A DNA stretch of 53,833 nucleotides from a virus (lineage: Duplodnaviria > Heunggongvirae > Uroviricota > Caudoviricetes), in the IMG/VR virus record IMGVR_UViG_2740892427_000003, one strand, 5' to 3'. Position numbers and translations under genes: made by a program. Shown in pieces: positions 1 through 40,276 of this stretch. How positions within the stretch are numbered: the first letter of the stretch is position 1; the number at the start of each line of letters is the position of its first letter. The notes below the pieces were generated by a model that had not been told where the DNA came from, ran no database searches, and saw nothing but the letters and a program-made list of their open reading frames with translations.

Positions 1-546
1 CTACGCACGTCCAACCAGGTGCTTCACACTCCTGTACTTAAGACCATTTTTACCAAGTCCCATATACAGAAAGGTGTTCACCGTCTTCGTGTTTATCCCC
101 ATTTCACGGGCAAGATGGCAGGGCTTTGACTCCCGGTACACGTATCCAAACATCACCACCATCTCGGACATCGTCAGAGGTCGCGCATACGTATTATGTA
201 CCCACTCACCATTCCGGATTTTCCTGTACGTCTCCAGGCGCCCCGTAACATCTTCCGCATCAATCTGAAGATAACGGCGTCCCTGAAACATGCAGCACAT
301 CAGCCTGCCAAGGAGGGCATCACAGATTATCACCCATGACTCATCATGTGCCGGTACACTCTTCCTGTTCTCTGGTGTAAAAAACTCCCTCGCCAGTATT
401 ATCCTGTACCCCTCAAGCATCTGCTGCAGGCCATACTCCAGATAACGGTTGCGGGTCGCCAGAATCACTTTCATCGCTGTCACCTGTTTCATGCTCACAT
501 GAGAAAAAACGGCAGGCAAAACTCCACGCCTGCCGTCATGCTTCAT
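1..546 (-). CDS. LuxR/GerE-family HTH transcriptional regulator (GadE-like architecture); start codon uncertain
   Basis: C-terminal 55 aa (LTMSEMVVMFGYVYRESKPCHLAREMGINTKTVNTFLYMGLGK) fits the LuxR-type HTH pattern; N-terminal part looks like a degenerate receiver-like domain. ATG at 546; stop at window position 1-3. Confidence 0.45.
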   Translation of the reverse strand: MKHDGRRGVLPAVFSHVSMKQVTAMKVILATRNRYLEYGLQQMLEGYRIILAREFFTPENRKSVPAHDESWVIICDALLGRLMCCMFQGRRYLQIDAEDVTGRLETYRKIRNGEWVHNTYARPLTMSEMVVMFGYVYRESKPCHLAREMGINTKTVNTFLYMGLGKNGLKYRSVKHLVGRA

Positions 547-560
547 GTCACTGTCAGCAA

Positions 561-1805
561 TTAAAACTCAAAGTTCACACCTACGTTGTAGGACACATCG
601 CCATCACTCGCTGCCACACCTGCTTTCGCTGCTGTCTGCTCATTGAAACGGTAACCAACACCCACGGCAACAGCCTGTTTATCACTGTACCCCCCCAGGG
701 CAGCAGTGGCGTTGAATTTCCCCACACTGTACGGCTGGAAAAGCCCCGCCAGCGCTGCACTCTGTGCTGCTGCACGCTTCATCTCTTCGTGATTCTCACG
801 AATTTGACGCTGCTGGCTGTTCAGGCGTGCATTATGTTCCTGCAACTGGCGAGTATTGGACTGAATAGCCTGTGTATTTTTAGTAACCCGGCGGTCAACG
901 CTACCAACTGCAGCATCAATACGGTCTGTTCTGCCGGACAGAGCAACGAGACCGTCATTAACAGCAATCGTTTTTGTAGCGCCATCAGCGCTGGTCAGGG
1001 TTCCGTCCGCATTCACACCAACGGTGGTTCGGGAATCAATTTTATTCGTATTCGCAGCCGTTGCTGCATCAATGATATCTGTGCGGGATGAAAGCTCAGA
1101 CAGTCCTTTCTTCTGGATCGCCAGCCCTTCTTTCTGTTCTTCCACATCTTTCGCTATAGTGACAACGCCGTCATTGATACGTAACGGCGTTACAATATCT
1201 GTCTCATTCAGAGTTAGCTTACCGTTTTTATCTAGGCCAATTGCGCTATTTGCAGCCTCTGTAGCCAGATAAGTCTGCAAAGACACGCGTTCTTTAATAC
1301 TCTCTGCACTAGTTGCCACTCGCCCATATTCATCCAGACCAACATTAGTTTCCATTTCAGAGATCGCAGCAATTCTGCCAAAAAGATTCCGAATATCAGC
1401 ATCAGATACAAGGTCTGTTTGAGTACCCTCTTTCTTTCCAAGAGTGTTTTCTTTATCCTGCTTGACCAGTGAATTCATTAGGTTATGAAACTCCCGGTCA
1501 TACACACGATATGTACTAGTGCCATCCTTGGTAGTAACTTCTACAGTCCCATCTTTATTAATTTTTGATAATCCTTGTACAATATCTCCATCTTTAATCC
1601 CCTCAACACCGCTAGGTACTTTTTTCCATTTAACATAAGCGGTATCAGAATCACTATTATAAACAATGGTGTAAGTACTTCCGTGTTTACCTAACACATC
1701 CAAGGCGCTGTAGCTATATTCATTTGCACGTGTAAAAGAACTAACACTCAACAGACCTACAACCAGAGAAGATGACAGAAGTGTCTTTGTGATTTTTTTA
1801 CTCAT
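561..1805 (-). CDS. YadA-like trimeric autotransporter adhesin, Eib-family candidate
   Basis: Signal peptide ([24 protein letters not shown]), coiled-coil-rich passenger, and C-terminal anchor ending GVGYRF...YNVGVNFEF typical of the YadA-like membrane anchor. AGGA Shine-Dalgarno 8 nt upstream of the ATG. Confidence 0.6.
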
Positions 1806-2210
1806 TATGGATATCCTGTTAAATTATCTGTATACAAATCAGCCTCAACACCTCATACTCATAAAGAAATATGATTAATTACGGCTTCATTCAGGATATT
1901 CCAAAAATAAATCCAAAAATTAATTTAATAATTTAGGATTTATCTTACATTATTCTTGGTGTAGTCACTCAGAACCACGACTACACCACCGGAACAGGCA
2001 TCAGAAAAAACTCACTCTCATCCGGCATGCTGTGTCACATCTGCTTACACTGTAATTTATGAGAAAAATCTCAATAGCAGTAAAAAGTAACTGTTCAGTT
2101 AAAGTGTAATATTTACCTAAGTAACTTTTCCTGTGTATTACCGTGAAGGAGCATAATTGGTTATTGGGCGTTCTCCTTCCATAAAAATACGCAGTGTCCT
2201 CCTTTCCAGA

Positions 2211-2882
2211 TTACGGATCACCCCAGCCAACCCTGTATGCCAGTATCTCATCCGCACTGGTCAGCTTTTCCAGCTCTTTCTTCATGGTGCGCTGCCGGAC
2301 GTGGATTTCCATCCCTTTGGTGAACATCGCCTGCTCTGCCGCTTCACTCAGCGCTATAAGCTCTTCTGCTGTCACTTCCACATCATTGTTTTCCGCATCC
2401 GTCCAGAAAAACGCCTCCGGCAGTTTCCCCGCTTTCGCTGCCGCCACCGACGGCTCAAGACGCGTCTGCGTTGACTTCCCGTAGTCCCATTTACGCCCAT
2501 TGTGCTCAAACGTGTAGTTCGCCGCTTCCATCGCATTACGCCAGGCGTTAATTTCATCGCCCTTCATCCCTCGCGCTTTCTCCGCGGTCAGCAGGTCCGT
2601 GATTTTCTCCCCGTCAAAACCCCAGCGCCCCGAGATGTCAGCTTTGCGGTTTTCTTCCGTATCCGCCACCTCCACCACACTCTGGCCCACTGGCCACAGA
2701 ACTGACGCCACCCTGCTGATGCCGGTAATGACTCCGGCACTGTTATAAACCACCTTCAGCGTCTCTGCTGAAAATAACGACTGACACTCATACCAGTCCT
2801 GACCATCCTCTGATTTCAGGTACATCGCACCCGGCACATCCGGATTTTCCGGCGTGTATTGTCTGAAATTCTTTATGTGCAT
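2211..2882 (-). CDS. tfa: tail fiber assembly protein
   Basis: 223-aa ORF directly downstream of the tail fiber gene, with Tfa-like sequence pattern; ATG confirmed at 2880-2882. Confidence 0.8.
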   Translation of the reverse strand: MHIKNFRQYTPENPDVPGAMYLKSEDGQDWYECQSLFSAETLKVVYNSAGVITGISRVASVLWPVGQSVVEVADTEENRKADISGRWGFDGEKITDLLTAEKARGMKGDEINAWRNAMEAANYTFEHNGRKWDYGKSTQTRLEPSVAAAKAGKLPEAFFWTDAENNDVEVTAEELIALSEAAEQAMFTKGMEIHVRQRTMKKELEKLTSADEILAYRVGWGDP

Positions 2883-2923: not shown

Positions 2924-4651
2924 TTATAATGGAAAATACTCAAACCCCGAAGCTCCTGACGACACATACTCACCCACGCTGACTGTACGCCACTGAGAAC
3001 CATCAAATGTCACCTGAAGCGGCCTGTAAGATACCCTGTCAATAAGGGTTTTGTTTCCGTCGTTGTAACCGCCAATCCCCGTAATCATTGCACCAATATC
3101 CAAATCCACTGCCCATGTAGTGCTGTCTGTTTGCGGCGCATAAGTCTGTTTATTACCCAGCCTGATACCCACAACCCGGCTCTTCCCGTCTGATGCCCCG
3201 GGCGGCCCCATCGGCCCGGTTTCTCCACGCTCACCTCTGGGACCGGGGTCGCCTTTCTCCCCTTTCGGTCCCTGCGCTCCCCGCGGACCAGCGGGGCCTG
3301 TTGCTCCCGTTTCACCTTTCGGACCCTGTGCTCCGGGGTCGCCTTTCTCTCCTTTCGGACCGGGAACACCACCTCCTGCTGCAGCCTCTTCTGCCTTTGT
3401 TTTCGCTTCATTTGCCACATCCATTGCCGCCTTCACGGCCTTCGGCGTGGCTGCCTTTGTTTCGTCATTACTGTCAGTATCACTGCTTAACTGCACCACA
3501 CCTTTCTGCGTCGTACTGGCATCCCGCTGGCTGACCGTATCCGGTTTGTTTTTTGTGCTGTAATCCACCCGCCAGTGGAAATACCGTGTGTCGCCGTAAA
3601 CCGTACAGGTACAGACCGTGCCATTAATAAACCCCGTTGCACCGTATTCGCCAATGGTGACCCGGACTATGGCAGCCTCATACGTTCCCATCACCTCAAT
3701 GACACAGCCACCCAGATTGAGTTTTCCCGGTCCGACATCTGTGATGACTTTATTCATTGACGCAAGCAGTGATGCCTTCATCATCCAGTAAGGCTGGTCA
3801 AATGCCCCTTTTTCTTTCAGCCAGGCAACAAACTCGCGTGTTTTCCATTCACCGGCCCCCGTATGAATGTCCCGCCCGTATACTCTGGCTGCTCCCACGG
3901 TGTTCAGAAACTTCACCTTATCCGGGATATCATCACCGTTTTTCGCTTTCTCCAGGCATCCGTCCGCTTTGTCCATTGCCGATTTCACCGCTTTCGGGGT
4001 GGCTGCCTTCGTTTCGTCATCACTGTTCGTTGTGCTGCTTAACTGCACAATTCCCTTCTGTGCCGTCGTCGCATCCGGTCCTCCCGGCTCGCCTTTTTCG
4101 CCCTTCTCTCCCCGTTCACCTTTCACACCCTGAAGCCCCTGTGGTCCTGTCTCACCCCGCTCACCCTTTGGCCCACGCTCGCCGGTATCGCCTTTTGGCC
4201 CGGGAATACCCTGCGGCCCGGTGTCCCCCTTATCCCCCTTCGGTCCCCGCGCATTCTCTGCCCGTTTTTTTGCCTCCTCCGCACTGGCTGCGGACGCTTC
4301 CGCACGTTTCAGGATTTCCGCTGCCACCGCTTCCAGCTCTGCAAGGGCTTTCGGGTAATACTGTGCGTCTTCCAGGTCCATCAGAAATTTATTCAGCGTT
4401 CCCGGTGCAGAATCCGCCTTCACCAGAATGTCACCCACATATGACGGCGCGTACCCTTCCGTGTTCAGCGTCACCCGGTACAACCCCGGCTCAACATCCA
4501 TACTGTAACTGCCGGTTTCCCCCGGCTGACCATACGCCACCGTAGTGACAATCACCGTCTCCGTTGTGCGTCGCGCTTTCAGCTCTATCGTGCATCCCGG
4601 TACCGCTTTTCCCGTACCATCCTTCAGCACACCCGATATTCTGACTGTCAT
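2924..4651 (-). CDS. stf: side tail fiber protein with collagen-like G-X-Y repeats
   Basis: 575 aa with two collagen-like [13 protein letters not shown] tracts and a duplicated KAATPKAVK segment; sits between J and tfa. Confidence 0.8.
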
Positions 4652-4793: not shown

Positions 4794-4934
4794 TTACTGC
4801 TTACACTGTAAGAACGCCGCAATCTCCGCGCCCGCTATCCGGAACCGGAACTCGCACAGTGAACTGTGGGTGATCCAGATAATGAGCACTACCGTGATAC
4901 AAATCACGGTGGTTTTTAACGGTTTTTGCGACAT
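4794..4934 (-). CDS. Hok/Gef-family type I toxin-like small membrane protein (46 aa)
   Basis: Not in the ORF track (<60 aa). Translation MSQKPLKTTVICITVVLIIWITHSSLCEFRFRIAGAEIAAFLQCKQ has the Hok pattern (N-terminal TM helix, SLCE, aromatic-basic segment, E-AAF); AAGGAG Shine-Dalgarno 8 nt upstream of ATG. Confidence 0.5.
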   Translation of the reverse strand: MSQKPLKTTVICITVVLIIWITHSSLCEFRFRIAGAEIAAFLQCKQ

Positions 4935-5132: not shown

Positions 5133-8100
5133 TCACGAAATACTGATACCCGCCGTGGACTTCTTCATCACGACAACCAGCAGATCGCTGATACTCGCTG
5201 TCGGGTACCATCCATTCACCAGCCAGGCAGACACAGAAAACTCCAGCGTCATATGCCCCCTTCCTGCAGGCATATCAATCACCCCTGAATACACCTGAGA
5301 CTCAGCCAGCGCCGTCCTTTCAAAAAGCACCCTGCCGTTACATTTCACCATCAGCCGGCATGATGAATAAATATCGTTATGCTCTCTCTCATGTTTAGCG
5401 CCGCTGAAAGCCACTGCCGGGATCACAATTTGCCGGTCAAAAGGCTGATCGTCATAAATCCTGACGGTAATGGTCCCCGATGGCCACCGCTCCGGTGCGC
5501 GGGAGTCCCGCGGGAAAGCCTTCCCCACGGTTTTAACAATATCGCCTTCAATCTGGTTGGCAGACAGTTTTCCAAGTATCCGGCAGTTCTGGTTAATGGT
5601 CACATTATTGAGCGTGCCCGAGTTCGCACTGATATGTCCGCTGATGTCCGCATTGCGGGCCGTCAGCCTGCCCTCCGGCGTCAGGGAGAACGTCGGGGGA
5701 TTGCCGGACGAGGTGATGCTCACTGCAAACAGTCGCTTCAGGAACACATCGTTCATGAACAGCTGATTCCCCTGCGCCACAAACAGCGGCGTGGTGTTGC
5801 CGTTCTCCGGGTTAATCATCGCGATACGGTCCGCCTGCAGCAGAATATTGCTCAGGGGCTGGCCATCAGCATCCTCAATCCCCGCACCAATACCGGCAAC
5901 ATACGGAATGCCGTTTTTCGTTTTCTGCACCTTCAGCATGTACAGCGCAGCCAGGTCGTGATTTGTGCCTGTCTGCACCCGCTGTATCTGCTGTATGGTG
6001 GCACTCTGGTCTTCCAGGGTTTTACTGACCGTCTGCGTGATTTCATTGCGGGTTTCGGTGATGGTGGTCTTCATCTCCGCCATCTCATCATCAAGCTGGC
6101 TGTTATCAATCAGCTCCCACATCCCCTGTGCCAGATGCAGTTTTCCTATCTTTTCCCGAAACAGCCCCAGATACCCTTCTGCATCATTGCTGGCCCGGCC
6201 ACTGGCTTCCACAAACGCAGATTTCCCCACCAGGTTGACGCTGCGCACATAAAACCAGAAATCCTTCCCCGGCTTAATGTGCGGGCCGGAGACACTCCAC
6301 TGGCTGCCTGTCCCCAGATAACGGGCAGAGGTTTCCACCTGAGATGTGTCTGCGATTTTTGCCTCCGAAAACCAGAATTCAAATTGTACCGTCGGGTCAT
6401 ACACCGTAAGATGCGGGACCGCCGTTATCTGATAATACCCCGGCGTCAGTTCAATGCTGGCCGGTGCTGCCGGTGCGTTAATCCGGAACGTGGTGGTGGC
6501 AGGTTCGCCCTGCTGGCCGTAGCTGTTTATCGCCCTGACCGTCAGGGTGTATTCCCCGGGCGGCAGGCCACTGAAACGGTGCTCCGTGTCGGCAGTGATA
6601 GCGCTGGTCACCAGGCGGCTGCTTTCACCACTGCCACTGGTCAGGCGCAGACTGAAGCGCACGCCCTTCACCACCCGCGGCGTGTCCCATTTCGCCAGCG
6701 CCAGATACTGGCCGTCTGAGGCACTCACCTCCACCGTGAGGTGCTGCACAGCCGGCGGGATGACGCTGTTCAGTGAACCGGAGAGCGGCTCAAAGGTGGC
6801 CCCGTTATCCACGATGGCTTCTTTTTCCGGCACATGCTGCACCGCCGTGATGGCAAAGGTGCCGTCCGTGTTTTCCCGGATGGAAACACAGCGGAACAGG
6901 CGACGACGCAGTGACGGCAGGGAGAGTCCCCACACACCGTATGTCTCCACGCCATCCGGCAGGACGCTGACCTGTATCCGGTCCGGGGCGGGGTGTGCGG
7001 TGATGTCCACGCGCACCGGCTTACCGCTGCCGTTAATCAGGTTCACCGTCGATGTCCCTGTCTCCGGCAGGGTCACCTCACGGTCCAGCGTCAGGGTACG
7101 GCTGGCGGCATCCATGGACAGGATACGTCCGCCGGTCAGGGTCCCGGCGTAGTCGTTATCACAGATTTCAATGATGTCACCGGGCGTGTGCCGCAGCCCC
7201 TGTGACCCGAGCATGAAATCCACCGTCTGCGTTTCCAGCAGTTCTGTCTTTATCACCCACAGTCCGGCACGGTGGGCCTGACCGCGGCTGGTACAGCCAA
7301 ACGCATCCATCTTCAGCAGATTGCGCCCGTAGCGCAGGATGGCGTCCGGGTCTTCCACCAGTTCAGTGGAAGTCTGCCAGCCGTTCTGCGGGTCGGTGTA
7401 ATTCACCTCCACCGCAGTGTGCCGGTCCTTCAGGGCACTGAAGCTGTAGCGGAACCCCACGCCGTTATCATCCACCACCACATCGCTGTTGGTGTACGGC
7501 CACACCACATCCGACGGACGGTCCTGAACGAACGTCAGCGTCTGGCCGTTCCATACCGGCATACAGCGCATCGCCGAGCAGAAATCCCCCAGAACATCCC
7601 AGACCTTACGCTGCTGTGACAGGTACGCATTGAAAGTCATCCGCGGCTCTGTGCCCCCGAAACCATCCGGGACCGTCTGGTCGCAGTACTGCCCGATGGC
7701 ATACAGTGCCCACTTGTCCACATCCGCGGCCCCCAGGCGTTTTCCCATGCCGTAGCGCGGGTGGGTCAGCATGTCCCACAGGCACCAGGCCGGGTTATTG
7801 CTGTATGCCGGTTTCAGACTGCCGTCCCAGATACCGCTGTAGGTGCGTTTTTCCGGGTCATAGTTTGACGGCACCTGAATGATGCGACCACGGATATGGT
7901 AGTTCACCGTCAGCTGCTGGCCACCAAACTGCTCCGCATCCACCTGCAGCCCCACAATCGCCGTGTTCGGGTAGCACTGTTTCACATCGATGATTTCGGT
8001 GTATGACGACCACAGCGTTCTGTTCTGCAGCTGGTCCGTGGTGCTGTCCGCCGTCTCCCTGACCATCCGGATGTTAAAGGGGCGCTCAGGGAGATTATTC

Positions 8101-8606
8101 AGAATCACCGACATCAGGTACTGCGAGGTGGTTTTGCCGTTAATGGTGATATCCTTCTCCGTCACCCAGTGCCCGTTACGCTCAAGCTGAATCAGCAGCC
8201 GGACAGAAGAGGGATTACGGTCACCCTTTGAGGTGGTCTCCACCAGTGACTGCACCCCGAAGGTGACCCGCAGACGGTCAATGTTCGCTGACGTGATGGT
8301 GCGCGTCACCGGCTTTGCCTTCGTCACCTCCACGCCCAGTGCGGTTTCTGCCCCGGAGGACTCAAAGCCTTCCGGCGGTGTCTGCTCCTGCTCCCCGGCA
8401 CGCCAGACGGCGGTCACACCGTGTATCACGGGATTACCGTCCGTGTCCGTCAGCGGGGTTTTGTTCACCAGAATACTCTGCAGTCCCTTCACCGGGCCTT
8501 CCACCGGTCCCTCACCGATGGCATCAATCACGCTCATCATCTGCGTGGATTTGAGATTGTCCTTCGCCTCACGCGGTGTGTGCCCCTTGCCGCCCCCTTT
8601 ACCCAC
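5133..8606 (-). CDS. J: tail tip / host specificity protein J
   Basis: 1157 aa; N-terminus [22 protein letters not shown] and long collinear similarity to lambda J as recalled; GTG start with GGAGAGGGGG Shine-Dalgarno. Confidence 0.95.
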
Positions 8607-21477: not shown

Positions 21478-22838
21478 TTTTTCAGAATCCCCCTGAACAT
21501 CGCCTTCACCGCATCATGCTCTGTTTCAGTGATTGCCTTATTACCGTCAGAGGCAACGACCGCCTGAGGCACGGAAGCTGTTTTACCGGACGACGCGAAC
21601 GGATCTTCACGGGCATCACGGCGGGACAACGCTTCCAGACTGTAGTTCTGCTGCTGAAGATACAGTGCATCACCGCCGGCCAGGGGCGGCAGGTTCTCCC
21701 GTTTACGGGCCTCATTGGGCGTGAGAAGCGTATTTTTCACCGCATCCCCCAGCGTTTTCATGCGCCGCTCACTGTCCATTCTCAGCAGCGTGGTGACATC
21801 AAATTCCGTACTCTCGTTTTCCCCCGTTTCCAGCGCCTCATCCAGTAACAGTTCAATGGACTCAATCAGCGTCTGCAGGCACTGAGAATAATACTGCTGC
21901 TCCAGCGCCTCCACGTTGTCACTGGAAGGCGGTTGTCCCACGCCAATCTTGTAGGCCGGGACACGGAACACCGAACAGACAATTTCAGCGGTCATCTTCA
22001 GTTGTTCCACCGTCTGCGAATCCACCGGTGAAAACGTCGTGGGGTTGTATTTTGCCCCGTTGCTCAGAATGGCCGTTTTCCCCGCATTTTCGCCTGTATA
22101 CCCGCTGTCCCAGTTGCTCTTCAGTTTTTTCGCATTTTCTTCCGTAATACTGCCGGGGATCTCAATCACCCCGGACGGCCTGCCGCCATTTCTGAAAAAA
22201 GACGTCGAATTTTCCTGAATATGATGCCCCTGCGTGGCCGCCAGCCCGGCGGCATACACCGGCGGCAACCCTATAAGCGGATGAAAAAAACAGTTAAACC
22301 GGTCGTGGATCACTTCCCGGGCAGGCACCGTCACCGCCTCAGTGATCCCGCAGTTCCGGTCCGGCGTGATGCGGTAGAACACCTCGCCGTCATCCGCCAC
22401 CAGAGGTTCAACCCGGTTCCAGTCCAGAATACGCAGTTCTTTGATCTGCCCCCGGGCATTACGGATTTTCAGCACCACCGTATTGCCGTGACGCAGTTTG
22501 GCGTTCAGCCACAGTTCAAAAAACTGGATGCGGTTCTGCTGGGCGTTGGGACGACGACAGAGGCGGGCAATATCCCCCCGGCGCGTTTCCCTGCGTATCC
22601 CCTGCGCATCCGTCTGCATAAGACGCAGCCGCATTTTGGCGATATCCTGGGATATCAGCGAAATACATGCAAACACCGCATGAAAGGAGAGGACGGCTTC
22701 AGGATCGGCTTTCACGCCCTGCTGCCAGGCGCCGGAAAAGGGCTCAGCCACCGCCTGAAACAGGCTGGTCCAGCCCGCCTCTCTTACGTCACGTCCTGAT
22801 TTCTGGTTTTTTCGGGTTCGCCGTAAAAGGTTCCACAT
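21474..22838 (-). CDS. phage portal protein (HK97 family)
   Basis: 454 aa; FFRNGGRPSGVIEIPGSITEENAKKLKSNWDSGYTGENAGKTAILSNGAKY...VFRVPAYKIG matches the HK97-type portal signature. Confidence 0.8.
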   Translation of the reverse strand: MWNLLRRTRKNQKSGRDVREAGWTSLFQAVAEPFSGAWQQGVKADPEAVLSFHAVFACISLISQDIAKMRLRLMQTDAQGIRRETRRGDIARLCRRPNAQQNRIQFFELWLNAKLRHGNTVVLKIRNARGQIKELRILDWNRVEPLVADDGEVFYRITPDRNCGITEAVTVPAREVIHDRFNCFFHPLIGLPPVYAAGLAATQGHHIQENSTSFFRNGGRPSGVIEIPGSITEENAKKLKSNWDSGYTGENAGKTAILSNGAKYNPTTFSPVDSQTVEQLKMTAEIVCSVFRVPAYKIGVGQPPSSDNVEALEQQYYSQCLQTLIESIELLLDEALETGENESTEFDVTTLLRMDSERRMKTLGDAVKNTLLTPNEARKRENLPPLAGGDALYLQQQNYSLEALSRRDAREDPFASSGKTASVPQAVVASDGNKAITETEHDAVKAMFRGILKK

Positions 22839-39921: not shown

Positions 39922-40276
39922 GCACACCCACCTCTGTAATTCTTATCTCCAGCCGTCCACCAGATACTGGCTGGCCACGTACAATATTGATTTCATCAAA
40001 CTGCTCATCGTCCATTAACAACCCTGCATGCGTCAGCGCATCCAGCGGCGCTTTCAGGATATTATCCAGGTCACGGCGGCGCTTATCCGGTGGCTCTGCA
40101 ATCACCTTTATCGCCAGCCTTCCGGACAGGCTTAATTTCAGCCGCTGCTGGCGAACAATAAGCGCCACTGCCCGGCGATAGCGCTTTCCCTCCTCAGATA
40201 TAAAATATGTGCTGCCACGACGTCGCCAGTAAGTATTCACCGTCGGCGGATAAGGCAAAACAAACTCTATACGCAT
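39914..40276 (-). CDS. rusA: Holliday junction resolvase RusA
   Basis: 120 aa; MRIEFVLPYPPTVNTYW...RRDLDNILKAPLDALTHAGLLMDDEQF typical of RusA. Confidence 0.85.
   Translation of the reverse strand: MRIEFVLPYPPTVNTYWRRRGSTYFISEEGKRYRRAVALIVRQQRLKLSLSGRLAIKVIAEPPDKRRRDLDNILKAPLDALTHAGLLMDDEQFDEINIVRGQPVSGGRLEIRITEVGVHE

Follow-up and report, generated by a model that had tools for sequence, protein, structure and literature searches.

An Eib-family adhesin gene and an orf-156 homologue of predicted NarL/FixJ-like class form a probable lysogenic-conversion cassette in a lambdoid Escherichia coli prophage at ompW

What are the two genes that lie beyond the tail fibre genes of this prophage, and does the smaller of them regulate the larger? 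The window (the whole stretch of 53,833 nucleotides that was analysed) begins with the stop codon of a short gene, orf-156 (window bases 1-3), preceded in the direction of transcription by an adhesin gene. A sequence-only reading had placed an adhesin and a regulator on one strand beyond tfa, in the position typical of lysogenic-conversion cargo, and this arrangement holds: both genes are intact and on the minus strand, downstream of the tail genes, and the late genes all share the strand of the cassette. The order is:

5133-8606, minus strand: J, a tail gene in the order leading to the adhesin
4794-4934: hok-like gene, between J and the tail fibre gene
2924-4651, minus strand: tail fibre gene, before the tfa-like gene
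2211-2882, minus strand: tfa-like tail fibre assembly / DUF4376 gene, the last virion gene ahead of the cargo
561..1805, minus strand: eib-family trimeric autotransporter adhesin gene (414 aa; RefSeq WP_024213780.1, "YadA C-terminal domain-containing protein")
1..474, minus strand: orf-156 homologue (157 aa; WP_000864634.1, "hypothetical protein"), with a predicted receiver-like (beta-alpha)4 domain and a LuxR/GerE-type helix-turn-helix (HTH)

The tfa-like product matches PHROG 136 (tail fibre assembly) over residues 1-98 and Pfam DUF4376 (E 1.4e-17), with a weak match to Caudo_TAP. As in P-EibA, the adhesin gene lies between tfa and the end of the prophage, which is flanked by a partial ompW and an intact ompW. 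The cargo is larger than first described: adhesin and regulator are both present, but the cargo runs on past the left edge of the window, where an orf-60-like gene is followed by the gene of an EaaA-like SPATE protease (seen in a 100%-identical stretch of E. coli FHI_NMBU_10). The resulting gene order – J, tail fibre, tfa, eib, orf-156, (orf-60), eaa – is that of P-EibA.

Comparison with four ECOR-9 loci (blastn) gave 96% DNA identity to P-EibE over window positions 1-1037 and 81% to P-EibC/D/E over positions 1763-2552. Judged by sequence, the counterparts of the cassette are the ECOR-9 prophages P-EibA, P-EibC, P-EibD and P-EibE (GenBank AF151091 and AF151674-6). Taken as a whole, the explanation that we consider highly probable is that a lambdoid prophage, inserted at ompW of a Shiga-toxin-producing E. 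coli, carries the two genes as its eib/orf-156 lysogenic-conversion cassette. The eib/orf-156 cassette has been known since 2000, and what is added here is the classification of the regulator alone.

The adhesin is built from the following parts:

1725..1805, minus strand: predicted Sec signal peptide (residues 1-27, cleavage after TRA), from inspection and alignment with the signal peptides of EibA/C/D/E
1461..1724, minus strand: N-terminal domain (NTD; about residues 28-115), the sole head domain, with no left-handed beta-roll
1038..1762, minus strand: low-GC passenger cassette (40.8% GC), coding residues about 15-256
831..935, minus strand: stalk segment (residues 291-325) with homology to the part of EibD mapped as binding IgG Fc
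564..740, minus strand: YadA-like membrane anchor (residues 356-414; Pfam PF03895 positions 1-60 of 60; 2LME)

The anchor covers all 60 profile positions of Pfam PF03895 YadA_anchor (E 1.1e-15; 57.9 bits, cut-off 22.7), and the protein matches the solved YadA anchor 2LME (E 3.4e-18), EibD 2XQH (E 5e-24) and, across its full length, PHROG 9547 (E 6e-151). Alignment with EibA, EibC, EibD and EibE showed homology along the whole adhesin: full-length identity to EibA is 56% by tblastn and 61% in a MAFFT alignment, identity to EibC/D/E in alignment is 50-56%, and the last 157 residues are 95.5% identical to EibE. With a complete anchor and these Eib relationships, the proposal of a YadA-like trimeric autotransporter of the Eib family is borne out.

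By inspection only, the N-terminus has a basic MSKKITK, a hydrophobic core and then TRA followed by NE. The NTD aligns with that of EibA/C/D/E, and in the same alignment the beta-roll head of EibC/D/E (roughly 115 residues) is missing, as it is in EibA. In the monomer model (pLDDT 54 overall) the NTD alone is confident (pLDDT 72-90 over residues 31-110), and long helices are predicted at 220-257 and 283-354; the stalk is homologous, by sequence match, to the solved trimeric stalk of EibD. A fold search with the adhesin model returned noise only (best E 0.23) and no solved relative of the NTD, consistent with its description as a novel fold (PMC12511318). After Sec export, three C-terminal YadA-type anchors would form an outer-membrane barrel, and the coiled-coil stalk, with its two saddle-like inserts, would pass through it together with a small head made of the NTD only.

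EibA (P-EibA, ECOR-9, AF151091; AAF63234) is similar over its full length, sharing the NTD-only head, the saddle, the RIDAAVG Fc-binding motif and the YadA anchor. It differs in length (392 aa vs. 414 aa), in lacking a saddle-like insert (GLDKNGKLT...INDGVVT) that the window adhesin shares with 17 of 18 aligned EibA-like homologues, in its C-terminal third – EibE-type in the window adhesin, with a 7-residue deletion – and in a passenger region without similarity at the DNA level. The passenger cassette (1038..1762) has no DNA match to eibA, eibC, eibD or eibE in the four ECOR-9 loci (blastn). EibE, encoded with ORF-156E in P-EibE (AF151676), shares with the window the same terminator as well as the 1-1037 region and the upstream region, but EibE (487 aa) has a YadA-like left-handed beta-roll head and a right-handed coiled-coil segment where the window adhesin has the EibA-like low-GC cassette. 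On these comparisons the adhesin is classed as an Eib mosaic with no allele name of its own: its 3' part is of EibE type, its passenger is a low-GC, EibA-like cassette, and the region upstream is of EibC/D/E type. Such an allele shows the passenger part being swapped, as a low-GC cassette, between flanks that are otherwise conserved. At thresholds of at least 90% coverage and at least 95% identity, the cassette is present in 22 of 5426 complete E. coli genomes (20 human, 2 food).

Does such a mosaic still bind immunoglobulin? EibD (2XQH, 2XZR) and EibG share with the adhesin the saddle, the anchor and a left-handed coiled coil carrying the Fc-binding Asp (EibD D387, EibG D391, here D297). Residues R295-I296-D297-A298 align with EibD R385-I386-D387-Y388, and both D297 and A298 are invariant in 19 EibA-like homologues. 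In EibG, which naturally has Ala at the position of EibD Tyr388, the substitution D391A – equivalent to D297 of the adhesin – abolishes IgG-Fc binding (PMC13534694). Because the stalk is 95% identical to EibE and this one Asp is conserved, the adhesin should bind IgG Fc non-immunologically through the part of the stalk that surrounds D297. The segment to which IgA binding was mapped in EibD is absent: EibD 329-344 falls in a gap of the alignment, and this, like the missing beta-roll head, sets the adhesin apart from EibD and EibG. By homology to EibA and EibE the adhesin should also promote serum resistance and drive autoaggregation of the clump rather than the chain type: chain-like adhesion is not expected, since it needs the full head region of EibD and EibG, and EibA – with a head consisting of the NTD only – forms clumps, not chains (PMC12511318).

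The Cla proteins suggest a different fate, in which the adhesin has lost immunoglobulin binding and serves aggregation and serum resistance only, with orf-156 a decaying, functionless passenger; we regard this as very unlikely. ClaA and ClaB, which are related to Eib, support adhesion but do not bind Fc, and the adhesin has Ala where EibD has Tyr388 and, compared with EibA/C/D, has lost 7 residues from the stalk. However, the critical Asp is kept, the neighboring Ala is found also in Fc-binding EibG and in EibA (EibA itself reportedly binds Fc, a finding of Sandt and Hill), and the 7-residue deletion is common to EibE. The Cla proteins, moreover, have neither NTD nor Asp and occupy other contexts, whereas the adhesin has an NTD, the Asp and the canonical Eib context. 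That the adhesin might be ClaA or ClaB was likewise rejected on NTD, Asp, context and distribution, the two being set apart by the published Cla descriptions: like the adhesin they are Eib-related trimeric autotransporters of LEE-negative Shiga-toxin-producing E. coli, but they have no NTD, no Fc-binding Asp, less than 50% identity to Eib and other genomic contexts (Kotaka et al. 2026, PMC13534694), where the window adhesin has all three Eib features. Strains JNEC-KY174, KY176 and KY202, sequenced in the same work (PMC13534694), carry the window adhesin gene at 99.5-100% identity.

As for orf-156, the 181-aa call in the list of open reading frames (1-546) over-extends the gene, its start lying inside the eib terminator. 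The start is M25 of that frame, an ATG at 474 preceded by AGGTGA, and is the same in every homologue and in RefSeq. Decay of orf-156, as the passenger reading has it, finds some support in the many relatives that are truncated remnants; against it, the gene in the window is full length relative to its family – not a truncated pseudogene – and its product is 99.4% identical to ORF-156E and falls in a 99%-identity cluster of 553 member sequences.

The class of the product is less readily seen. Its own sequence gave no significant Pfam or NCBIfam match, GerE and Response_reg included, and no GerE match at E <= 0.1. Among family members, 3 of 25 touch Pfam GerE (best E 1.1e-4) and 8 of 25 touch Sigma70_r4_2; the family profile finds only VqmA (E 0.05) and GerE (E 0.2) among PDB sequences, and hhalign aligns it with GerE at 94.7% probability, the HTH in register. 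An exhaustive HMMER profile search of 1.84 billion proteins returned 37 representatives, the named ones all from E. coli: these are the family itself or its fragments, and no bridge to mainstream LuxR proteins was found among them. The predicted DNA-binding domain is as follows:

25..177, minus strand: LuxR/GerE-type HTH of the orf-156 product (residues about 100-150), with the near-invariant LTMSEMVV...MGI..KTVNTFLY..KNG

Its recognition helix is nearly invariant across the family.

The AlphaFold (AF2) model (pLDDT 88.8, pTM 0.84) predicts an N-terminal domain of about 95 residues with a receiver-like fold of four strands, followed by HTH helices at 102-113, 118-125 and 129-142 and a very short last helix (150-153); in GerE and NarL the fourth HTH helix mediates dimerization. 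A Foldseek search with the model returned NarL/FixJ/LuxR-family proteins at all of ranks 1-39 (RcsB, DesR, FixJ, LiaR, EvgA, StyR, VpsT, VraR), with probability up to 0.99, a best E of about 1e-3 and TM of 0.3-0.48. An invariant Asp, D52, occupies the phospho-acceptor position after strand 3, but T7, R8 and N9 stand in place of the acidic pair after strand 1, and there is neither a fifth strand nor a conserved Lys. The autoinducer-binding domain PF03472 has no match in the product or in family members. On model and sequence together, the product is assigned as a small, atypical NarL/FixJ-like protein: a predicted pseudo-receiver without the Mg2+/phosphate pocket, joined to a LuxR/GerE-type HTH. 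Like GerE, DevR/DosR, RcsB and EvgA it would have a receiver-like alpha/beta domain (in the model) and then a tetrahelical HTH; it differs from the family in its 157 aa, the missing acidic pair, fifth strand and Lys, the very short last helix and the lack of Pfam-level membership.

The product does not qualify as a quorum sensor and is unlikely to be a phosphorylated response regulator, although the invariant D52 speaks for phosphorylation; most likely it binds DNA without being phosphorylated. The earlier label of LuxR-type regulator thus survives for the DNA-binding fold, to which the GerE alignment and the NarL/FixJ-like model point, and not for the rest: an autoinducer-binding domain, an acidic pocket and a Pfam or NCBIfam match of its own are all missing. 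PsrA and PsrB, prophage regulators near effector loci of O157:H7, were considered as its identity and rejected, being AraC-type. A specific RcsA- or GadE-like relationship was also set aside and kept as a weak functional analogy: hhalign with the family profile gave 3.9% for RcsA and 1.1% for GadE, restricted to the C-terminal HTH part, in a weak, single-sequence comparison (of the two sequences, the one validated was that of RcsA, which scores 403 bits against the NCBIfam RcsA model).

Whether such a protein regulates the adhesin depends on how the two genes are expressed, and the DNA around them contains:

1806..2210, minus strand: adhesin upstream region, AT-rich (34.6% GC), 81% identical to the upstream regions of eibC/D/E
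1957-1988: hairpin within this region, 12-bp stem and no T-run (fold z = -2.8)
502..537, minus strand: intrinsic terminator between the adhesin stop and the orf-156 start (11-bp stem, 7 GC pairs, six-T run)

The terminator (fold -27.9 kcal/mol, z = -4.4) lies 24 nt past the adhesin stop codon, and from its T-run to the orf-156 start is only about 30 nt. A hairpin with a T-run is found at the same place in P-EibA/C/D and in prophage loci L017 and L025, with different stem sequences; in plasmid locus L012 the hairpin is kept, and the T-run is short and interrupted. Given this spacing, the regulator would probably be made at low level, by read-through from the adhesin promoter, and during induction may also be made from Q-antiterminated late transcripts. 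A consensus scan of the coding strand found no sigma-70 consensus promoter upstream of either gene; by eye, a possible -10 (GATAAT) with a poor -35 can be seen.

Two readings of the role of orf-156 can be set against these data. According to the first, which we hold tentatively and at less than even odds, the product is devoted to the control of the neighboring adhesin gene and binds the conserved eib upstream region; since orf-156 would be made only when eib transcription reads through the terminator, the outcome would be a feedback loop. One indication is synteny: a YadA-anchor gene immediately precedes orf-156, and the terminator layout is the same, in prophages (the window, P-EibA/C/D/E, L017, L025, L031) and in plasmids (L012-L016), and the linked pair occurs in 71 of 5426 complete genomes. 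The near-invariant recognition helix points the same way, as does a candidate site: an invariant block ATTTGTATACAGATAATTT, containing the palindrome TGTATACA, lies 24-31 nt before the ATG in all five eib genes, and the palindrome at 1829-1836 is the sole copy in the window. A dedicated regulator would also account for the reported condition-dependence of Eib expression; expression of EibG responds to static growth, oxygen and temperature, and the EibG paper names no regulator.

Several observations weigh against it. Intact standalone homologues with no adhesin nearby are found upstream of kpsF, near hpa/PerC and with Hha and PapB, and in O157:H7 and O55:H7 remnants of orf-156 follow the tail-fibre genes without an adhesin. 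Neither the plasmid adhesin locus nor any standalone locus has the palindrome TGTATACA; as family-wide operators, TGTATACA and GGATATCC were therefore rejected, being kept upstream of the eib genes proper and absent from those other loci. Regulator and presumed target do not co-vary, because ORF-156C/D and ORF-156E share only 68% identity while the eibC/D/E upstream regions are nearly identical. Finally, Sandt, Hopper and Hill reportedly found in 2002 that expression from single-copy eib prophages in K-12 required ibrAB, genes not linked to them: orf-156 alone, on that account, would be insufficient. A dedicated role in adhesin control is made uncertain by the strong terminator that separates the genes and by the number of standalone homologues. 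Synteny and the read-through layout favor a link between adhesin and orf-156, and the standalone homologues and remnants weaken the case for a dedicated regulator.

The second reading, which we consider doubtful, is that orf-156 encodes a phage- or island-borne regulator acting mainly on host chromosomal or neighboring cargo genes (eaa; surface-structure and stress loci); it might partner a host NarL-family protein such as RcsB, as RcsA, GadE, BglJ and MatA do. RcsB and EvgA are among the best structural matches, and a small protein with no phosphorylation pocket and an invariant recognition helix is what is expected if all copies share one host site. The genomic settings fit as well: standalone copies lie beside capsule (kps) genes and in islands with PerC, Hha and PapB, family matches occur in 646 of 5426 genomes, most without an adhesin junction, and in the ECOR-9 phages orf-156 abuts orf-60, followed by eaa. 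Against a host regulator stand the low hhalign probabilities for RcsA and GadE, with nothing beyond the HTH, and the upstream region of eib, where no convincing RcsAB-box-like site was seen: a candidate with 9 of 14 matches by eye was rejected.

LEE-negative Shiga-toxin-producing E. coli turn up in human disease with increasing frequency, and in these bacteria Eib adhesins capture antibodies by Fc, confer protection from complement and cause aggregation. As the cassette had been described before, the gain in practice is modest. With its EibA-type head on a stalk and anchor of EibE type, the allele bears on typing schemes and on the prediction of phenotype (clumps vs. chains, IgG vs. IgA). A more ambitious proposal, and in our judgment an unlikely one, is that the ORF-156 family is an E. 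coli-restricted class of miniature, phosphorylation-independent pseudo-receiver/LuxR-HTH proteins that travel with Eib-type adhesin genes on phages and plasmids, are expressed by terminator read-through and set adhesin levels. If true, the family would explain the dependence of Eib on static growth and oxygen, and – given standalone paralogues directly upstream of the kps capsule operon – would control several surface structures. The assignment of the gene after every eib to the NarL/LuxR fold class provides a concrete candidate regulator of condition-dependent Eib expression.

The sequence-only reading placed an adhesin and a regulator gene on the same strand beyond tfa, and both are there: on the minus strand at the left end of the window the order runs from J through a tail fibre gene and a tfa-like gene to the adhesin and a second gene.

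5133-8606, minus strand: J (ORF plus domain/PHROG annotation)
4794-4934, minus strand: hok/mok-like ORF of 46 codons (PHROG 251 MokW-like, E 1.8e-21; RefSeq 'Hok/Gef family protein')
2924-4651, minus strand: collagen-repeat tail fibre gene (ORF plus domain/PHROG annotation)
2211-2882, minus strand: tfa-like DUF4376 gene (ORF plus domain/PHROG annotation)
1806-2210: AT-rich spacer of 405 bp between the tfa-like gene and the adhesin
561-1805, minus strand: adhesin ORF of 414 codons (ORF list)
stop codon at window bases 1-3, minus strand: second gene, the orf-156 homologue (ORF list; homologue starts)

The Shiga-toxin-producing E. coli strain FHI_NMBU_10 carries window positions 1-2210 on its chromosome with 100% identity, and another 18 complete genomes, of isolates from humans or food, match at 99.5% or more; they include JNEC-KY174, KY176 and KY202 of a recent Eib/Cla study. 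The FHI_NMBU_10 copy is a lambdoid prophage flanked by one partial and one intact ompW; the window covers it from the second gene's stop codon to the integrase's. Immediately left of the window follow a small orf-60-like ORF and a SPATE autotransporter that shares 94.5% identity with EaaA. With these included, the series J, tail fibre, tfa, adhesin, 157-aa gene, orf-60, eaa reproduces the gene order deposited for the ECOR-9 prophage P-EibA, which bears out the proposed cargo position downstream of the tail fibre genes, and P-EibC, P-EibD and P-EibE share the core of eib, stem-loop and orf-156. Because gene order and core match these deposits, the locus is, as judged from its sequence, the eib/orf-156 lysogenic-conversion cassette already known. 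Deposits of 2000 record this cassette, where it lies and that orf-156 exists, and a survey of 2026 included strains with the exact allele; new here are only an unnamed recombinant adhesin allele and the placing of ORF-156 in the NarL/LuxR fold class.

Several further features of this prophage were recorded. Past the left edge, in comparison locus L002 (3637-8000), the orf-60-like ORF, for a small membrane protein, matches the last 40 residues of ORF-60A at 55% identity, and the S6-family (SPATE) autotransporter (1330 aa) is followed by a DinI-like fragment and the partial ompW. The host-killing toxin ORF of hok/mok type separates the tail-tip gene J from the tail fibre gene, and the annotation places another Hok/Gef gene in the early region of this prophage. 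In the tail fibre protein, phage tail fibre repeats are bracketed by two collagen-like Gly-X-Y blocks, an arrangement described for collagen-like proteins of EHEC prophages (PMC3368898). The tail gene cluster is interrupted, between the gene for L and that for the tail protein before it, by a 384-codon ORF (11524-12678, minus strand; 'porin OmpC' in a near-identical RefSeq record) that may be a second cargo gene for an outer-membrane protein. The portal ORF (21474-22838) is directly followed by a 677-codon ORF (19444-21477, minus strand) containing a tandem repeat at 19901-21312 (unit 162 bp or 54 codons, 8.7 copies, 96% match); in the FHI_NMBU_10 prophage this stretch has four copies fewer and is 648 bp shorter, and RefSeq calls the portal gene there frameshifted. 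The late regulatory region (about 35,500-40,000, minus strand) resembles that of Stx phage: downstream of Q are annotated a DNA methyltransferase, three tRNAs (CAT, Arg-TCG and Arg-TCT, at 36598-36847), a second methyltransferase and then a SASA/NanS-p-type esterase, with no stx genes in the annotation of this region.

The profile search found a complete translocator domain in the adhesin, in keeping with its reading as a trimeric autotransporter: Pfam YadA_anchor is matched over 60 of 60 positions (E 1.1e-15; 57.9 bits, cut-off 22.7). Whole-length alignment with EibA gives 56% identity by tblastn and 61% by MAFFT; over its final 157 residues the protein reaches 95.5% identity to EibE. DNA identity is 96% to P-EibE over window 1-1037 and 81-82% to P-EibC/D/E over 1763-2552, while the intervening passenger cassette (1038-1762; residues ~15-256) has no DNA match in any of the four ECOR-9 alleles. 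The GC content of this cassette is 40.8%, against 53% in the 3' part, and it was found in 22 of 5426 complete E. coli genomes. On these alignments the gene is a mosaic at the DNA level, and its product is an unnamed recombinant allele: an EibA-like head joined to an EibE-type stalk and anchor. A signal-peptide-like N-terminus precedes the Eib N-terminal domain (NTD), the only confidently predicted part of the monomer model, and two saddle-like segments, a left-handed stalk and the YadA anchor make up the rest. As in EibA, whose head consists of the NTD only (PMC12511318), there is no left-handed beta-roll head; the first saddle-like segment (GLDKNGKLT...INDGVVT), however, is missing from EibA itself, although 17 of the 18 EibA-like homologues aligned possess it.

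Fc binding by EibD is determined by D387 and Y388, which correspond to D391 and A392 in EibG, where D391A abolishes binding (PMC13534694). The adhesin has D297 and A298 at these positions, both invariant in 19 homologues. In alignment it differs from EibD in having no counterpart to segment 329-344, to which Leo and Goldman (2009) reportedly mapped IgA binding. We read the protein as an adhesin that probably binds IgG Fc, confers serum resistance and forms clumps; chain formation requires the complete head found in EibD or EibG (PMC12511318). Assignment to the Cla proteins was rejected: these have neither the NTD nor the Asp and occur in other genomic contexts, a distinction drawn from Cla descriptions rather than from alignment.

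The ORF list gives the second gene 181 codons (1-546); translation from that start would cross a terminator hairpin lying downstream of it. In homologues and in RefSeq the protein begins at M25 (ATG at 474, after AGGTGA), which leaves 157 aa; measured against its family the gene is complete, not a truncated pseudogene. Its product is 99.4% identical to ORF-156E and 68-69% to ORF-156A/C/D, hypothetical in all sources, and a member of phrog_6585, listed as of unknown function. Its own sequence has no significant match in Pfam or NCBIfam (only RcsC-ABL, sub-threshold, E 0.018). An exhaustive HMMER search of 1.84 billion representative proteins with the ORF-156 profile returned 37 matches only, all of them the family itself or its fragments, and in the sequence search every match with a source name is from E. 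coli.

Structure prediction places this family. The AlphaFold model (alignment of 21 family members; pLDDT 88.8, pTM 0.84) has four beta-alpha units (strands 2-6, 23-27, 47-51, 68-72) and C-terminal helices at 102-113, 118-125, 129-142 and 150-153; the top 39 Foldseek matches in the PDB are all NarL/FixJ-family regulators (E ~1e-3, probability up to 0.99), including RcsB, DesR, FixJ, LiaR, EvgA, StyR, VraR and VpsT. The family profile matches only VqmA and GerE among PDB sequences (E 0.05-0.2), hhalign pairs it with GerE at 94.7% probability with the HTH in register, and 3 of 25 members touch Pfam GerE, 8 of 25 Sigma70_r4_2. In the receiver-like domain D52 is invariant at the phospho-acceptor position; the acidic pair after strand 1 (T7, R8, N9 instead), the fifth strand and the Lys are absent. 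Because the predicted HTH fold matches and the pocket residues are missing, the label "LuxR-type" is right for the predicted DNA-binding fold, does not hold if an autoinducer receptor is meant, and probably does not fit a classical response regulator that is phosphorylated. We place ORF-156 in the NarL/LuxR fold class, as a minimal family that lacks the pocket and is restricted to E. coli. Comparisons with RcsA and GadE gave no support for a specific kinship with either; PsrA/PsrB, being AraC-type and unrelated, were rejected. The literature searched contains no paper that ties Eib to a LuxR-type regulator or mentions orf-156.

Between the two genes, 24 nt past the adhesin stop codon, stands a strong intrinsic terminator (minus strand 537 to 508, then six T; 11-bp stem, -27.9 kcal/mol, z = -4.4). 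Hairpin and T-run occur at the same place, with differing stems, in P-EibA/C/D and two other prophage loci (L017, L025); a plasmid locus keeps the hairpin, with a short and interrupted T-run. A consensus promoter scan of the ~30 nt from the T-run to the orf-156 start codon found none. In the simplest model the regulator would be made at low level, by read-through of the terminator from the adhesin promoter; upon phage induction Q-antiterminated late transcription would also cross the cassette, because the whole late operon lies on the same strand. No promoter could be assigned in the adhesin upstream region, which is AT-rich (34.6% GC). A block there, ATTTGTATACAGATAATTT, is invariant upstream of the adhesin gene in all five eib loci compared, and contains an 8-bp palindrome, TGTATACA, 24-31 nt upstream of the start codon and occurring once in the 53.8-kb window (1829-1836): a candidate regulatory element or core promoter. 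The palindrome is also present at position 3887 of comparison locus L004 and at 2494 of L031, an unrelated prophage, at the same place before an adhesin gene.

Relatives of ORF-156 occur in other settings. In L021-L024 (5001-5516) and L026-L027 (4001-4492), intact homologues of 57-61% identity have no adhesin gene nearby and are flanked by a type VI secretion remnant on one side and kps genes on the other; kpsF, which opens region 1 of the group 2 capsule genes, lies ~450-490 bp downstream of them. On Rep3/CcdAB plasmids (L012-L016, 1-5918) a homologue of 58% identity follows a short YadA-anchor gene (called length 254-367 aa, differing among plasmids), itself preceded by a 1439-aa YadA-head/stalk adhesin, of which the locus covers the 3' part only, and a BamE/OmpA-like gene. 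Truncated or pseudogenised relatives are found in E. coli O157:H7 86-24 (L032, 5038-5226) and O55:H7 DEC5A (L033, 5001-5440), directly after prophage tail-fibre genes, with nleF and nleH1-2, which encode T3SS effectors, nearby in O55:H7.

That ORF-156 is a dedicated adhesin regulator – a possibility we hold only tentatively – is favoured by its recurrence after a YadA-anchor gene in prophages and likewise on plasmids, by the presence of this junction in 71 of 5426 genomes and by a recognition helix that is nearly invariant across the family. EibG expression, moreover, reacts to agitation, oxygen and temperature, and the reporting paper names no regulator. Against it, there are intact homologues without an adhesin partner: immediately upstream of kpsF, next to hpa/PerC, and with Hha and PapB genes. 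The O157:H7 and O55:H7 remnants, too, follow tail-fibre genes with no adhesin, beside nleF and nleH in O55:H7. Some match occurs in 646 genomes, the majority without the adhesin junction. The palindrome, furthermore, is absent from the plasmid adhesin locus and the standalone loci, and ORF-156 alleles show no co-variation with the eibC/D/E upstream regions. That the product instead regulates host genes or other cargo is an equally tentative and slightly less likely alternative. It is unlikely, though conceivable, that ORF-156 stands for a previously unrecognised class of miniature regulators, which would accompany adhesin cassettes and be found also upstream of capsule genes.
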